Part shown: positions 2,528 through 6,748 of the stretch, piece after piece
How positions within the stretch are numbered: position 1 is the first letter of the stretch
Layout: every line of letters begins with the position of its first letter
The notes under the pieces: generated by a model
Told to the model about the DNA's origin: nothing
Database searches by the model: none
Seen by the model: the letters and a program-made list of their open reading frames with translations, nothing else
Translations under genes and position numbers: made by a program
Virus record (IMG/VR): IMGVR_UViG_2693429748_000010
Source: a virus
Lineage: Duplodnaviria > Heunggongvirae > Uroviricota > Caudoviricetes
Reading direction: 5' to 3' (one strand)
Length of the DNA: 7,609 nucleotides

Positions 2528-2562
2528 CCCTCTTCTCCCTGCGCGCTACTTAAGTATTTTTG

Positions 2563-2592
2563 ATTCTATTCCGGCACCATCTAAAACTTCAA
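2563..2592 (-). promoter_or_regulatory. Candidate sigma70 promoter for the leader-peptide/86 aa transcript (TTGAAG-N18-TAGAAT)
   Basis: Minus-strand -35 TTGAAG (2592..2587) and -10 TAGAAT (2568..2563). Same hexamers with a different spacer recur upstream of the paralogous module (4738..4765) and again at 6089..6118. Confidence 0.35.
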
Positions 2593-2610
2593 ACGCGTTG
2601 AAAATAAAAA

Positions 2611-2630
2611 CAAAAACCCGCCGAAGCGNC
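2611..2630 (-). terminator. Rho-independent terminator whose 5' stem arm is formed by the tRNA 3' end
   Basis: Minus-strand RNA GCCGC-TTCG-GCGGG followed by TTTTTGTTTTTATTTTC, assuming N at 2629 is G. The intact version (CCCGC-TTCG-GCGGG-TTTTT) is at 6138..6156. Confidence 0.45.
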
Positions 2631-2700
2631 CCTTGCTGGACTTGAACCAGCGACCTGGCGATTATGAGTCGCTCGCTCTGACCAACTGAGCTAAAGGGCC
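2627..2700 (-). tRNA. tRNA with CAU anticodon, most likely tRNA-Ile2 (lysidine) type; no encoded CCA
   Basis: Manual fold of minus-strand GGCCCTT-TA-GCTC-AGTTGGTCA-GAGC-G-AGCGA-CTCATAA-TCGCC-AGGTC-GCTGG-TTCAAGT-CCAGC-AAGGG[N]C-G: 7 bp acceptor stem (needs N2629=G), 4 bp D stem, 5 bp T stem with TTCAAGT loop, anticodon loop CT-CAT-AA. Closely resembles E. coli ileX as I recall it. One A-C mismatch at the top of the anticodon stem. Confidence 0.75.
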
Positions 2701-2788
2701 GGAGGCAGAATAATAACCATATGTCATCACATCTGCAAACTCATCTGACCACCAGCACGTTTAACGTCCTGTGCCGTTTTTCAGGTAT

Positions 2789-2810
2789 AAAAAAACCCGC
2801 ATAAAGCGGG
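2789..2810 (-). terminator. Rho-independent terminator, candidate tR' of the Q82-like late region
   Basis: Minus-strand CCCGC-TTTAT-GCGGG followed by TTTTTTT, about 80 nt downstream of the Q-like stop. Confidence 0.55.
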
Positions 2811-2871
2811 CTCTTTCAAATGTCCATGTCTGCTATTCGCCTCGCGGTACAGCTTTGCGAAGCGTACAAGA

Positions 2872-2900
2872 ATTGAAGCAGTTTTTACGTCAAAAAGCAA
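2872..2900 (-). promoter_or_regulatory. Candidate late promoter (PR'-like) overlapping the 3' end of the Q-like gene
   Basis: Minus-strand TTGCTT (2900..2895), 17 nt spacer, TGc-TTCAAT extended -10 (2877..2872). Hexamer-level guess only; a TTGACG hexamer at 2893..2888 overlaps the Q stop codon. Confidence 0.25.
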
Positions 2901-3444
2901 TAACTTTTTTCTCTATACCAAAAGCCATAACCATTGGTTTGTACAAAATAAATTCTGCCACCTTTAGCCAATGCTCAATGCGTCTTTCACAGGTTCTTAA
3001 ACTCCATTTCGGGTGTGCATCATTCAGCAGTTCAGCCATTTTGCGTTTGGTCATCCCCCGCCCCTCATACCGTTGCCGAAGGACGCTAATCAATCCTGGA
3101 TGCTCTGCCAGCACCTCACTTATGACCCGATCAATACATAACGCCTCTGCATCAGTACAATGCGCCAGCCAGCTCTTTTGCTTACCGTTAATCATATCCC
3201 GCAAAAAAGCCTCAAGTTCAGACTTGTTCAGACCTGCTTTTTTCATCCTCCGGAGCGCCTCGTTAATTGCCGTTTTTGTCAGCTTTTTAGAGGTCAACAT
3301 CAGGTTAAACATATTCCCCGTCTTACCGCCACCAATATACGACCAGCGCCCCCACATACGTAGTTTTCCCTGAATCCAGACACTTTCCAGCGTGGTGAGA
3401 CGAAGGTGTTCTCCGCTTTTTCCTGTATTCGTTGGGTAAATCAT
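2890..3444 (-). CDS. Putative late antiterminator Q, phage 82-like family (family assignment uncertain)
   Basis: 184 aa from ATG 3444 (GGAGGG Shine-Dalgarno upstream); the track start at 3564 overlaps the upstream gene and is unlikely. Motifs LESVWIQGKLRMWGRW, RDMING, LRQRYEGRGMTKRKMAELL resemble what I recall of Q82-type antiterminators. Stop/start ATGA overlap with the YbcO-like gene; followed by terminator and tRNA as in Q-to-lysis regions. Confidence 0.5.
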   Translation of the reverse strand: MIYPTNTGKSGEHLRLTTLESVWIQGKLRMWGRWSYIGGGKTGNMFNLMLTSKKLTKTAINEALRRMKKAGLNKSELEAFLRDMINGKQKSWLAHCTDAEALCIDRVISEVLAEHPGLISVLRQRYEGRGMTKRKMAELLNDAHPKWSLRTCERRIEHWLKVAEFILYKPMVMAFGIEKKVIAF

Positions 3445-3731
3445 AAATATCCCTCCTTTCTCCAGATTTCTTGTGTGCGAAAAACACCTTCTGCATGCAT
3501 CAGGCGTAATTCTTCTTTGGTGTAATCGCTGGTTTTTACCCGCCCGTCGATTAAATCGTGGCACGAGCTACAGGCAATCGCTGCCTGCATATCGTGTGGC
3601 TTTATCGCTGTTCCGCACGTTCCCGCCAGTCGGTAATGCGCCAGCACAGACGTTTCCGGATCGTGATTGCAGTAGCCAGGAATTCTGACGGTGCACATCT
3701 GCCCCCGCGCCGCTTTACGTAAATCCACCAT
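3441..3731 (-). CDS. ybcO: YbcO-like (DUF1364) putative zinc-dependent nuclease
   Basis: 96 aa, true ATG at 3731. Cys/His pattern CTVRIPGYC...AHYRLAGTCGT...ACSSCHDLIDG; size and nin-region context match YbcO. Stop TGA overlaps the Q-like ATG; its own ATG overlaps the upstream stop (TAATG). Confidence 0.7.
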   Translation of the reverse strand: MVDLRKAARGQMCTVRIPGYCNHDPETSVLAHYRLAGTCGTAIKPHDMQAAIACSSCHDLIDGRVKTSDYTKEELRLMHAEGVFRTQEIWRKEGYL

Positions 3732-4330
3732 TACGCAAACTCCAGCAGCTGCGCGGCCACATTTTCGACTTGTTCCGGAGAGGAAAATTTACGGAACAGA
3801 ATCCAGTTCCACAGCACATTCAGAACAGATTTATAAACCTGCTGAAACTCGGTTTCGTCCATATTCGCAAACGCGATAGATTTCGCCCGACACCCACGGC
3901 TACCGTCCGGATAAAAATGCTCGGTGTAAAATCCAGCCTGAATGGTTACCCACTCGCGAAAAGCCTCAAACGACTTTAGCAATGCCGTATCACTGGTTCT
4001 GCGTGTCGCAACTGTATTCAGATATTGCTCTGCGGCTTCGCTCAGAGCTGGCGTATGTTCCCGGCCTACTGATTCACACAGGTAATCAACGAAACCGGAC
4101 ACCAGTTTTCGTTCGCGAGGCGTGATCGCCCCACCGACCGGAGTCCAGTAATCGAAACCCAGTTGCAGGAGTTTGAAAAAACGCTTGTGGAATGCGTAGT
4201 TACACACACGCTTAAAGTCTGCGTGTATCCACTCACCTATTTTGATTTGATGCAGAAAATCGCAACTCTCCGGCGTCGCCGGGAGAAGTAATCCGGAAGA
4301 GGTTTGTTTGACCAGTTGTATATGTGCCAT
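3731..4330 (-). CDS. Nin-region protein of unknown function, 199 aa
   Basis: ATG at 4330 preceded by GGAGAAAG at 6 nt spacing; the track start at 4372 lacks a ribosome-binding site. Long uninterrupted frame, coupled to ybcO-like gene. Family not recognised with confidence (possibly a DUF1367-like prophage protein). Confidence 0.6.
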   Translation of the reverse strand: MAHIQLVKQTSSGLLLPATPESCDFLHQIKIGEWIHADFKRVCNYAFHKRFFKLLQLGFDYWTPVGGAITPRERKLVSGFVDYLCESVGREHTPALSEAAEQYLNTVATRRTSDTALLKSFEAFREWVTIQAGFYTEHFYPDGSRGCRAKSIAFANMDETEFQQVYKSVLNVLWNWILFRKFSSPEQVENVAAQLLEFA

Positions 4331-4368
4331 CGGCTTTCTCCGGTGGCACGGTGTTACACAGCAGGAGT

Positions 4369-4656
4369 TCAATCCTGCTCAAGATTGTAGATGAGTTTAT
4401 TCTTCAGCAAAAGCAGAAAACCAGCCTTAAAACCAATCTCTTTCAAAACCCGTAATGATGTGACAAATTCGTCCTCACGCAAAATAAAACCGTCCGTCAG
4501 AAGTCCATTACAAAAATAAAATAACACAGCACCGCTCTTCCTTTGTTGAGATTGCAAACATCTAATGCGGCAATGGCTGACAATCGCTCCATTCTCAACG
4601 CGCACAGCATAGAGGCCATTTTCACTAAAAATTTCACGCAATTCTTCGATTTTCAT
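4369..4656 (-). CDS. Hypothetical 95 aa protein; paralog of 2220..2480
   Basis: True ATG at 4656. N-terminal ~70 aa nearly identical to the 86 aa paralog; C-terminus differs because of an indel-induced frame change. Confidence 0.5.
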   Translation of the reverse strand: MKIEELREIFSENGLYAVRVENGAIVSHCRIRCLQSQQRKSGAVLFYFCNGLLTDGFILREDEFVTSLRVLKEIGFKAGFLLLLKNKLIYNLEQD

Positions 4657-4658
4657 CT

Positions 4659-4703
4659 TCAGAATCCTTCCAGATAAATAGCTCTCCCCTGTTCGGGGTC
4701 CAT
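4659..4703 (-). CDS. Candidate leader peptide, 14 aa (MDPEQGRAIYLEGF)
   Basis: Same arrangement as 2480..2527; stop TGA lies 2 nt before the ATG of the 95 aa gene. Confidence 0.25.
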   Translation of the reverse strand: MDPEQGRAIYLEGF

Positions 4704-4737
4704 CCCTCTTCTCCCTGCGCGCTACTTAAGTGAGTCG

Positions 4738-4765
4738 ATTCTATCTGCGAAGGTGCGCGAATCAA
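4738..4765 (-). promoter_or_regulatory. Candidate sigma70 promoter (TTGATT-N16-TAGAAT) for the leader-peptide/95 aa transcript
   Basis: Minus-strand -35 at 4765..4760 and -10 at 4743..4738; hexamers conserved with the 2563..2592 copy while the spacer diverged. Confidence 0.35.
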
Positions 4766-4785
4766 ATTCACCGGAAATAAACAAC

Positions 4786-4828
4786 AAAAAACCCGCCGAA
4801 ACGCTGAGAGATCACAGCGATGGGCGGG
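4786..4828 (-). terminator. Structured 3' end and rho-independent terminator of hok locus B
   Basis: Minus-strand CCCGCC ... GGCGGG enclosing an inner hairpin CGCTG-9 nt-CAGCG, followed by TTTTTT. Confidence 0.5.
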
Positions 4829-4905
4829 TTAAGTGCGGGTGCGTTGAGGATGCCTGACACATCAGAGGTGGGCGGGGATGGGATCAGCTCCCCGCCCGGT
4901 CACTC

Positions 4906-5061
4906 TTACTTCCTGGATTCGTAGTCTACGAAGACAGCGACCTCCGTCTGGCCGGTTCGGATTCGTACCTCACAGAGGTCTTTCCTCGTTACCAGTGCCG
5001 TCACTATGACGGTTAAACAGATGACGATCAGGGCGATTAACATCGCCTTTTGCTGCTTCAT
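4906..5061 (-). CDS. hok: Hok-family type I toxin (51 aa) with variant C-terminus
   Basis: MKQQKAMLIALIVICLTVIVTALVTRKDLCEVRIRTGQTEVAVFVDYESRK: first 44 residues identical to E. coli HokD as I recall it, last 7 differ. AAGGAGAAG Shine-Dalgarno 6 nt upstream of a true ATG. Track ORF is an in-frame upstream extension. Confidence 0.75.
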   Translation of the reverse strand: MKQQKAMLIALIVICLTVIVTALVTRKDLCEVRIRTGQTEVAVFVDYESRK

Positions 5062-5118
5062 AGCCTGCTTCTCCTTGCCTTTCGGCATGTAAGAGGCTAA
5101 CCTACATGTGCAAAGCAT

Positions 5119-5283
5119 GAAATTGGCCTCAGATTAATGTTAAGCGTCTTGCCGGACGCGTAATGTTAACTGGGGCTTTTCTCTATCTGCCTTTTGGTGT
5201 TCATGCCTGAAGCAGATAGCCTCAAGCACCCGCAGTCATTCTACTTACCTCGCCAATATGAAATCAATCAGAAAGGTGCCCCA
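5119..5283. repeat. hok leader/promoter repeat, copy B
   Basis: Near-identical to 6445..6604; partial diverged copy at 6626..6748. Confidence 0.8.
5238..5267 (-). promoter_or_regulatory. Candidate promoter of hok locus B (TTGATT-N18-TAGAAT)
   Basis: Minus-strand -35 at 5267..5262 and -10 at 5243..5238, about 170 nt upstream of hok; identical element at 6559..6588. Confidence 0.4.
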
Positions 5284-5288
5284 TAAAA

Positions 5289-5975
5289 TCACTCCTTCTC
5301 TTCTTTACCGTAGTGGAGTTGACCAATTTTGATAAGAGGGCGTCCCTGAGATTTGCGGTGTAGATTGGTATCGCGCAGAGAATACACACAGCCACAATAT
5401 TCCTGCTGATAGAATTTTTCGCGCTTGCTGATTTCAATCATACGGGACGAGCCGCCCTGCTTGCGCCAGTTATAATCCCAGTACACCATGCCCGGATAAT
5501 GCGCGACGGCTCGCCGCCCACAGTCGTTAACCTGCTGCATATTTTTCCAGCGTGAAATGCCCAGTGAACTGCTGATCACACTGAAACCATTTTCAGCGGC
5601 GTACAGCGCTGTCCGCTCAAAACGCATGTCAAAACACATGGTGCAACGGATCCCTCGTTCGGGCTCCCATTCCATTCCTTTGGCTCGTTCAAACCAGTTG
5701 TCTGTGTCGTAATCAGCATCAATAAACGGCACGCCGTGTTGTTCAGCAAAGCGAATATTCTCATCCTTACGAATTAAATACTCTTTCTGAGGATGAATGT
5801 TCGGGTTGTAGAAAAAGATGGTGTAGTCGATTCCCGAGGCCTGAAGCGCCTCCATCACCTCACCGGAACATGGAGCACAGCAAGAGTGCAGTAGTAGTTT
5901 GTTTGCCCCGTTTGGGAGCTCCAATTTGGGCCGTTTGAAATCAGCAACTGTCATAAATATGTTTATTGGGGTCAT
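5289..5975 (-). CDS. queH: QueH-like (DUF208) putative epoxyqueuosine reductase
   Basis: 228 aa with [10 protein letters not shown] near the N-terminus plus [18 protein letters not shown] and [11 protein letters not shown], which match the conserved Cys-containing motifs I associate with DUF208/QueH. No clear Shine-Dalgarno at either candidate ATG (5975 or 5954). Confidence 0.55.
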
Positions 5976-6034
5976 AAAAATATCAAAGAGTGTAGCATTA
6001 GAACGGGGCTATCGGAAACAGATGTGTGACTGCT

Positions 6035-6082
6035 CCCCGCCCGGTCACTCTTACTTCCTGGATTCGTAGTCTACGAAGACAG
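6035..6082 (-). pseudogene. 3' fragment of a hok-B-type gene (last ~9 codons, stop and start of 3' UTR)
   Basis: Matches 4887..4934 of locus B almost exactly; bounded by N at 6083 on one side and divergent sequence leading to the QueH-like gene on the other. Confidence 0.5.
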
Positions 6083-6137
6083 NTTTTGATTCTATTCCGG
6101 CACCATCTAAAACTTCAAACGCGTTGAAAATAAAAAC

Positions 6138-6156
6138 AAAAACCCGCCGAAGCGGG
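6138..6156 (-). terminator. Rho-independent terminator of hok locus C
   Basis: Minus-strand CCCGC-TTCG-GCGGG followed by TTTTTGTTTTTATTTTC. Confidence 0.6.
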
Positions 6157-6226
6157 TTAAGTGTGGGTGCATTGAGGATGCCTGACCCATCAGAGGTGGC
6201 GAGGGATTTCTCCCCCGCCTGGTCTC

Positions 6227-6382
6227 TTACTCCTCAGGTTCGTAAGCTGTGAAGACAGCGACCTCCGTCTGGCCGGTTCGAATTCGTACCTCGCAGAGGT
6301 CTTTCCTCGTTACCAGTGCCGTCACTATGACGGTTAAACAGATGACGATCAGGGCGATTAACATCGCCTTTTGCTGCTTCAT
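6227..6382 (-). CDS. hokD: Hok-family type I toxin, HokD-like (51 aa)
   Basis: MKQQKAMLIALIVICLTVIVTALVTRKDLCEVRIRTGQTEVAVFTAYEPEE matches E. coli HokD (RelF) as I recall it. Same Shine-Dalgarno and leader as locus B. Confidence 0.8.
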   Translation of the reverse strand: MKQQKAMLIALIVICLTVIVTALVTRKDLCEVRIRTGQTEVAVFTAYEPEE

Positions 6383-6444
6383 AGCCTGCTTCTCCTTGCC
6401 TTTCGGCACGTAAGAGGCTAACCTAGATTTGCCGTTCATAGATT

Positions 6445-6604
6445 GAGCCTCAGATTAATGTTAAGCGTCTTGCCGGACGCGTAATGTTAACTGGGGCTTT
6501 TCTCTATCTGCCTTTTGGTGTTCATGCCTGAAGCAGATAGCCTCAAGCACCCGCAGTCATTCTACTTACCTCGCCAATATGAAATCAATCAGAAAGGTGC
6601 CCCA
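6445..6604. repeat. hok leader/promoter repeat, copy C
   Basis: Near-identical to 5119..5283. Confidence 0.8.
6559..6588 (-). promoter_or_regulatory. Candidate promoter of hok locus C (TTGATT-N18-TAGAAT)
   Basis: Identical to the locus B promoter element. Confidence 0.4.
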
Positions 6605-6625
6605 NNNNNNNNNNNNNNNNNNNNN
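6605..6625. other. Assembly gap (21 N) inside the hok-leader repeat array
   Basis: Run of N flanked on both sides by copies of the same hok leader sequence. Confidence 0.95.
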
Positions 6626-6748
6626 GAAATTGGCCTCAGATTAATGTTAAGCGTCTTGCCGGACGCGTAATGTTAACTGGGGCTTTTCTCTATCTGCCTT
6701 TTGGTGTTCATGCCTGAGACAGATAGCCTCAAGCACCCGCTGCAATTC
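6626..6748. repeat. hok leader repeat, third diverged partial copy with different -35 region
   Basis: Matches the leader through the TAGAAT -10, then diverges (TTGCGG-N16-TAGAAT instead of TTGATT-N18-TAGAAT). Several point differences, so not a simple assembly duplicate. Confidence 0.6.

Follow-up and report, generated by a model that had tools for sequence, protein, structure and literature searches.

TilS converts C34 of tRNA-Ile2(CAU) to lysidine, giving AUA reading. Known tRNAs of this type include those encoded by ileX and ileY of Escherichia coli K-12 and by ileZ of the Stx2 phage 933W. In the GenBank annotation of 933W (AF125520), on which our comparison with this phage rests, Q, pR', terminators and pT are followed by ileZ, argN and argO, and the tRNA cluster lies between Q/pR' and stx; a search of the open-access literature for ileZ, argN and argO returned nothing relevant. 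Related tRNA-Ile genes are also carried by prophages of the E. coli/Shigella type, e.g. that of NZ_CP065613.1 (I6H01_RS20840; RefSeq/PGAP), where the copies have an encoded A73-CCA; after a single nucleotide comes tRNA-Arg, with tRNA-Thr, tRNA-Gly, holin and lysozyme behind it. Two further genomes (UGZB01000001.1 and CP061367.1) contain a copy that is cut by IS911.

Here we analyse a CAU-anticodon tRNA gene in 7,609 nucleotides of DNA from IMG/VR virus record IMGVR_UViG_2693429748_000010 (the whole stretch is hereafter called the window). The gene shares with 933W ileZ (i) the CAU anticodon, (ii) the acceptor stem GGCCCUU/AAGGGCC, (iii) the anticodon arm, including the A27/C43 mismatch, and (iv) a location downstream of an antiterminator gene and terminator(s), with a promoter-like site of its own. 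It differs from ileZ by three base changes in the D and T loops, by its upstream antiterminator (933W Q there, a DUF1133 protein here), by its partners (argN and argO there; tRNA-Arg(UCU), tRNA-Thr(UGU) and tRNA-Gly(UCC) in the intact relatives of the window) and by being without its 3' end. Compared with K-12 ileX and ileY, it has the same C4-G69, C5-G68, U12-A23 and C29-G41 pairs and an identical anticodon loop (CUCAUAA), but it is prophage-borne and shows small D-loop and anticodon-stem changes. Copies of the NZ_CP065613.1 type match it at 99.8% over 3.4 kb upstream, but the window turns to foreign sequence at an N. The IS911-cut copies stop at nt 70, as does the window contig; however, their next bases are the IS911 end, while those of the window belong to a hok terminator.

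The tRNA is genuine and of a known kind, and we consider it very likely that the features which would set it apart (i.e. the missing CCA, the G at position 73 and the hairpin shared with a terminator) are artefacts of a scaffold join marked by an N. The features on which this reading rests are listed in Table 1.

Table 1. Features of the window discussed in the text (Ns are without strand).
Feature	Position	Strand	Remarks
tRNA-Ile2-type tRNA, nt 1–70	2630..2700	minus	anticodon CAU at 2665–2667; end of contig P3
Single N, join of P3 and P4	2629		not an ambiguous base call within continuous sequence
Single N, join of P2 and P3	6083		exact repeats on both sides end at the N
21-N scaffold gap, between P1 and P2	6605..6625		both flanks overlap on one hok/sok copy in complete genomes
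Start of contig P4 (71 nt): 3' part of hokD mRNA terminator and downstream spacer	2558..2628	minus	exact duplicate of 6084–6154
Rest of contig P4	1..2557	minus	two small ORFs, DUF968, RusA and the N-terminal part of a lambda-type Q (Pfam)
End of contig P2 with intact hokD terminator	6084..6157	minus	ACCCGC-UUCG-GCGGGU at 6142–6157; from sequence
Sigma-70-like promoter site	2710..2739	minus	TTTGCA, 18 nt, TATTAT; consensus scan; just upstream of the tRNA
Strong intrinsic terminator, tR'-like	2785..2818	minus	between the Q-like gene and the tRNA
DUF1133 protein, Q-like putative antiterminator	2890..3444	minus	Pfam DUF1133, 355.8 bits
Epoxyqueuosine reductase QueH homologue	5289..5954	minus	Pfam QueH, 220.6 bits; early/nin region, adjoins hok

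The tRNA gene and its upstream region

ARAGORN identifies a single tRNA in the window (75 nt, minus strand, 2626–2700, anticodon CAT), and this call persists with any base at N2629. The Rfam tRNA model (RF00005) matches 2627–2700 with 63.9 bits against a gathering score of 29 (E 1.8e-12). On the minus strand the gene reads GGCCCUU...CUCAUAA...AAGGG-N-C and folds into a cloverleaf with conserved D and T loop elements; the acceptor stem has 7 bp if N is C (ARAGORN). As in every relative aligned, N2629 would be C71 of the tRNA, and the plus-strand letter would accordingly be G.

We aligned the gene with seven comparators: ileX, ileY and metT of K-12, ileZ of 933W and prophage copies from three E. 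coli genomes. Identity over nt 1–72 is 100% for the tRNA-Ile of NZ_CP065613.1, 95.8% for ileZ, 91.5% for ileY, 88.7% for ileX and 64.8% for metT; by this measure, the body of the CAU tRNA is nearer to tRNA-Ile2 than to metT. The acceptor pairs C4-G69 and C5-G68 are present (GGCCCUU/AAGGG(N)C). Both are very frequent in tRNA-Ile(CAT) genes according to a survey of CAT-anticodon tRNAs (PMC1635315), and acceptor-stem base pairs are relied on by E. coli TilS (identity elements of TilS, PMC11947777). Furthermore, identical copies carry the RefSeq label tRNA-Ile. Judged by its sequence, the gene appears to be a prophage-borne tRNA-Ile2 of the ileZ/ileX/ileY type, an already known kind, and by membership in that type it would be a putative lysidine-dependent AUA decoder charged with isoleucine. 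An earlier note on this DNA had described a prophage CAU tRNA resembling tRNA-Ile2; the resemblance is borne out by the ileX, ileY and ileZ identities, the two acceptor pairs and the RefSeq label, and ARAGORN and Rfam accept the fold that it proposed, ARAGORN whatever the base at N2629.

The product of the DUF1133 gene upstream of the tRNA gives a marginal match to Phage_antitermQ (Pfam, 28.4 bits against a cut-off of 26) and a weak phmmer match, in two short stretches, to the Q protein of PDB 6p18 (E 4e-4), which we take to be phage 21 Q. This suggests that DUF1133 may be a divergent Q-type antiterminator. The gene had been called 'Q82-like': a Q-like gene is indeed present, but its matches are weaker and less specific than that name implies. 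The tR'-like terminator that was reported between this gene and the tRNA is also found. Its hairpin (CCCGC-UUUAU-GCGGG) is extended by A/U pairing and comes with a U7 tract; the folding energy is −18.7 kcal/mol (z −5.95). The terminator is conserved in L001, one of the related loci described below. A terminator scan of 2450–2950 returned no site, although this hairpin folds strongly; we relied on the fold, and it may be that the scan is limited where an N falls within the region. The promoter-like site between terminator and tRNA occupies the position at which a 'pT putative tRNA promoter' is annotated in 933W.

AUA occurs at 9.3 per 1000 codons in the ORFs of the window; for the late genes of the intact relative L020 the figure is 11.3. 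Values of 9–11 per 1000 are roughly twice the E. coli average; AUA usage was one of the checks suggested in the earlier note, and it agrees with the interpretation given there. Placement resembling that in Stx phages was also proposed. It holds as far as the position after a Q-like gene and terminator is concerned, as annotated in 933W, but no late genes follow the tRNA in the window. Instead, a second nin-type module comes next; it comprises two small ORFs together with DUF968, RusA and a lambda-type Q (Pfam). Further tRNA genes, holin and lysozyme are present at this point in L001, L016, L018, L020 and L026, and we attribute their absence from the window to a mis-join. The prophage that carries the tRNA genes also encodes a tRNA-modification enzyme, the QueH homologue.

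Scaffold joins and tiling in complete genomes

Three N sites (2629, 6083 and 6605–6625) divide the window into contigs P1, P2 (6084–6604), P3 (2630–6082) and P4 (1–2628). Six contig ends border these sites: five are also the limit of an exact internal repeat, and the sixth, 2630, falls within the tRNA. The 71-nt block 2558–2628, beside N2629, is an exact copy of 6084–6154, beside N6083, and the other exact repeats are 4887–4937 = 6032–6082, 5126–5283 = 6447–6604 and 5119–5210 = 6626–6717. P4 and P2 share these 71 nt at their ends and therefore overlap end to end. N6083 joins the spacer downstream of a hok terminator to the middle of a hok reading frame. This pattern is that of contigs which end in repeats and were joined by a scaffolder, and the DNA does not appear to run on uninterrupted from one side of N2629 to the other. 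The exact DUF1133 protein is found in 3,743 blocks of a public collection, in most of which the longest contig carrying it is shorter than 5 kb; this fits a region bounded by repeats.

Complete genomes place three of the four pieces side by side. In CP064376.1 (L036, one of the loci L029–L036 reached via the exact DUF968 protein of the window), window 7609–6629 maps to 3977–4958, 6575–6084 to 4825–5316 and 2628–1 to 5246–7873, the last at 99.85% identity, ungapped and colinear. These pieces form an uninterrupted stretch in which neighbours overlap by 134 and 71 nt. It has a single hok copy, and within it the 2558–2628 sequence is continuous with the hok of 6084–6575; no trace of the piece 2630–6082 was found within the tiled stretch. 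The rest of P4 (1–2557) would thus be the nin region of a different prophage from that of P3, and the true upstream neighbour of 2557 downward would be the end of P2 (6084–6157). Both regions can occur in one genome: in CP104423.1, the DUF1133–tRNA locus lies at about 1.988 Mb and the DUF968 locus at about 1.862 Mb (0.12 Mb apart), and the pairs L010/L030 and L012/L032 show the same separation.

The merged P2 + P4 path, with the 71-nt overlap collapsed, is present as a single colinear piece in 1,871 of the 5,426 complete E. coli genomes. A real junction of tRNA and terminator would read ...CAGCAAGGGCCGCTTCGGCGGG..., and it occurs in none of these 5,426 genomes (BLAST, N set to C). Searches of GTDB representatives, JGI metagenome contigs and IMG/VR contigs gave no match either; in these, the N in the search pattern may miss a literal N in a record, so that the source scaffold itself could have escaped.

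Past acceptor position 72 (2628), the window continues with G-CUUCGGCGGGUUUUU (as written after the tRNA, G-CUUCGGCGGGUUUUUG); position 73 is therefore G, and no CCA is written. A hairpin CCGC-UUCG-GCGG, read as written, would use C71, C72 and G73. However, the piece at 2612–2628 (CGC-UUCG-GCGGG-U5) is a hokD terminator that is missing the first 2–3 nt of its 5' arm. The intact hairpin at 6142–6157 lies directly 3' of a hok copy, has a U-tract and folds at −11.8 kcal/mol. Sequence of the 2558–2628 type is present in about 2,800 complete genomes, where it follows hokD (e.g. in SMS-3-5). In SMS-3-5 and O103:H2 12009, the sequence from 2628 downward stands directly 3' of hokD, and the first bases after hokD in SMS-3-5 are the hokD mRNA terminator ACCCGC-UUCG-GCGGGU.

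In the minimum free energy (MFE) fold of the tRNA with its tail, the acceptor stem forms and the hairpin keeps 2 bp only. The two structures are predicted to be mutually exclusive, and double duty would fail even on paper. All seven comparators (ileX, ileY, ileZ, three prophage tRNA-Ile genes and metT) have A73 followed by CCA, as opposed to G73 in the window. A73 is an identity element that contributes to recognition by IleRS. If the fusion were real, it would be expected to work poorly, given the competition between stem and hairpin and the G73. Of what the earlier note said about this end, the absence of an encoded CCA is true of the letters, but the bases past nt 70–72 belong to another contig. 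The claim that the tRNA is fused to its terminator is not supported: the 3' side of the N is the hokD terminator of a different prophage. Nor is there support for the claim that N2629 must be G to satisfy both structures: the N marks a contig join, and the hairpin is reduced to its 2 bp once the stem is folded.

The hok/sok copies of the window merit separate description. Rfam places sok/hok 5' regions at 5056–5231 (117 bits), 6377–6552 (112 bits) and 6558–6738 (67 bits). The last two flank the 21-N gap and map, with a 134-nt overlap, to one single hok copy in L036. Judged by this mapping, the apparent tandem hok/sok array would be at least partly a scaffolding duplication, and there are probably only two real hok loci, one per prophage. 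Moreover, 6032–6082 is a 51-nt fragment of the 3' end of a hok reading frame, an exact copy of 4887–4937; a shared string of 11 nt (GGGCGGGGAGC) links it to the sequence upstream of QueH. At the same point, all 11 relatives examined have a different sequence (...GGAGACCGCCCGAAAGGGCGGGGAGC), and the fragment is probably another mis-join, in this case without an N. The small ORFs after each hok (2220–2483 and 4369–4656, both minus strand) are paralogous; 2508–2555 equals 4684–4731 exactly, and the paralogous regions are about 86% identical overall. Homologues of these ORFs are tagged Pfam Rem (PF27490) in precomputed annotation, while a Pfam search of the window gave no match for their products. 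The exact 87-aa protein of 2220–2483 is not on record in the assembly collection.

The tRNA 3' end in related loci

Thirteen related loci (L001, L009–L018, L020 and L026) read through the tRNA, and they show two different continuations. In 11 of the 13 (L001, L009–L012, L014, L016–L018, L020 and L026), the sequence continues as GGG|CCACCA and is followed by tRNA-Arg, tRNA-Thr and tRNA-Gly. Window 2630–6042 is 99.8–99.9% identical to these loci, all of which have the intact end GGGCC-A-CCA, and the sequence past nt 70 runs into the intact tRNA cluster as CCACCAACCACC.... In the closest complete genome, where the tRNA ends in ...AAGGGCC-A-CCA, the match to the window covers 6042 to 2630 at 99.8% identity and goes no further than the N.

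The other two loci, L013 (UGZB01000001.1) and L015 (CP061367.1), continue as GGG|TGAAGTAGTCAAC..., which is the end of IS911 exactly after nt 70. In both, a 1,250-bp IS911-family element occupies 3316–4565; a deletion beyond it has removed the 3' end of the tRNA together with tRNA-Arg, tRNA-Thr and tRNA-Gly. The far side of the element leads to the holin region, with no hok terminator. These loci are the best matches to window 2630–5944 (99.91% versus 99.79% for the loci with an intact tRNA). CP061367.1 contains an intact and an IS-cut copy of the tRNA that are identical over at least 315 nt up to nt 70; a short-read assembly graph of such a genome branches exactly at 2630. Since the best matches to this piece are IS911-cut loci and one of the two genomes holds both copies, the source is probably a Shigella-type, IS-rich genome, in which the tRNA may be intact or truncated by IS911.

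The junction of tRNA and IS911 was not found in GTDB representatives or complete E. coli genomes and seems to be confined to Shigella-type assemblies that carry the locus. As 2630–2700 is also 71 nt long, an overlap of k-mers might have ended the contig at 2630; this cause is inseparable from the better-supported divergence of intact and IS911-cut copies after nt 70. A genuine, natural truncation of the window gene does exist, namely the IS911-cut tRNA-Ile of L013 and L015.

The intact cluster consists of tRNA-Ile(CAU), tRNA-Arg(UCU), tRNA-Thr(UGU) and tRNA-Gly(UCC) with spacers of 1–3 nt (L001, 5131–5441; L009, L010, L012, L014 and L016–L018, 3245–3555). Its four anticodons read the A-ending codons AUA, AGA, ACA and GGA, which occur at 11.3, 7.0, 11.9 and 12.4 per 1000 codons, respectively, in the late genes of L020.

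Origin of the junction and its meaning

The geometry of repeats and Ns, the way the pieces tile in complete genomes and the 3' ends seen in relatives are direct observations; how the assembler produced the join, and which real 3' end the source carries, we infer. The tRNA would be the first gene of a lambdoid-prophage tRNA cluster, an ileZ-type tRNA-Ile2(CAU), of which only the first 70 (at most 72) nt are shown because the short-read contig P3 ends there. The scaffolder would have placed P3, with single-N joins, between P2 and P4, which would in truth be adjacent with a 71-nt overlap. P1, P2 and P4 would together represent the hokD, small ORF, DUF968, RusA and Q region of another prophage, and the 'fused terminator' would be the hokD mRNA terminator of that prophage. 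The same repeats (hok/sok and tRNA-Ile) border the two prophage regions, and this is the likely cause of the misplacement. The true 3' end in the source strain is most likely one of two: (i) ...GGGCC-A-CCA followed by tRNA-Arg(UCU), tRNA-Thr(UGU) and tRNA-Gly(UCC), or (ii) a truncation at nt 70 through insertion of IS911 and a deletion, which is what the two closest relatives show. If a genome had both versions, its assembly graph would branch exactly at 2630.

Some evidence speaks for a real junction. Insertion of a single N usually means that the contigs were estimated to be about adjacent, and the scaffolder did set the tRNA and terminator contigs side by side; read pairs presumably linked P3 and P4, though the shared hok and tRNA-Ile repeats could be the source of such links. 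With N read as C, the written letters allow a microhomology of 1–2 nt (GGGCC versus CCCGC) that real illegitimate recombination could have used, and the IS-rich Shigella-type genomes of this lineage are heavily rearranged. An illegitimate recombination or deletion at this CC microhomology could accordingly have joined position 72 of the tRNA-Ile to the hokD terminator of the second module, leaving a pseudogene in which the N is a poor base call. We regard this as improbable. On the terminator side, the 71 nt have an exact duplicate, and this adjoins the other single N. In complete genomes, the remaining three pieces tile one stretch that does not include the tRNA piece, and none of the collections searched contains the junction; moreover, a unique true junction would have been assembled through, with no N. 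The same points weigh against a functional CCA-less tRNA-Ile2 whose acceptor end is the 5' arm of its own terminator and which is matured by cleavage of the RNase BN/Z type and a CCA-adding enzyme, as in T4. Phage tRNAs without CCA can be matured in E. coli, the cloverleaf has a good score even though CCA is missing, and a U-tract does follow the hairpin; against this, G73 stands where the seven comparators have A73-CCA, the stem and the hairpin exclude one another, with 2 bp of the hairpin left in the MFE fold, and the hairpin is a copy, shortened to 4 bp, of the 6–7 bp hokD terminator that is intact at 6142–6157. We give this version very little credence.

A collapsed and dropped IS911 between true neighbours (tRNA nt 70, IS911, hok terminator) would explain the join differently. 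The element does stand exactly after nt 70 in the two closest relatives, and IS copies are typically lost from short-read contigs. However, its far side in L013 and L015 is the holin region and not a hok terminator, a 1.25-kb gap written as one N is implausible when the same scaffold has a 21-N gap, and the 71-nt overlap ties P4 to P2; this appears to us the least probable of the explanations considered. A tRNA gene of the T4 type, naturally without CCA, was considered as a candidate and rejected: the join is marked by an N, the junction is in no collection searched and the homologues either encode CCA or are cut by IS911.

In the very doubtful case that the junction is real, with the 3' end of tRNA-Ile2 replaced by the hok terminator, the product, once cleaved endonucleolytically at its 3' end and given a CCA, might still be functional as a G73 tRNA. 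The gene would then be a natural enterobacterial example of a tRNA gene without CCA in which acceptor stem and terminator compete with each other.

If, as we think very likely, the unusual 3' end stems from the scaffold join, the locus carries a caution: a single N in a draft scaffold can stand for a contig join, and features that span it should not be taken as genomic. Here, the features misled by such joins are the tRNA 3' end, the 'shared' hairpin and the apparent triple hok/sok array. What lies beneath is known biology. In E. coli and Shigella, the lambdoid prophages have genes for tRNA-Ile2 and for other tRNAs that read rare codons downstream of the antiterminator gene, and in Shigella-type genomes this tRNA-Ile copy is sometimes destroyed by IS911.
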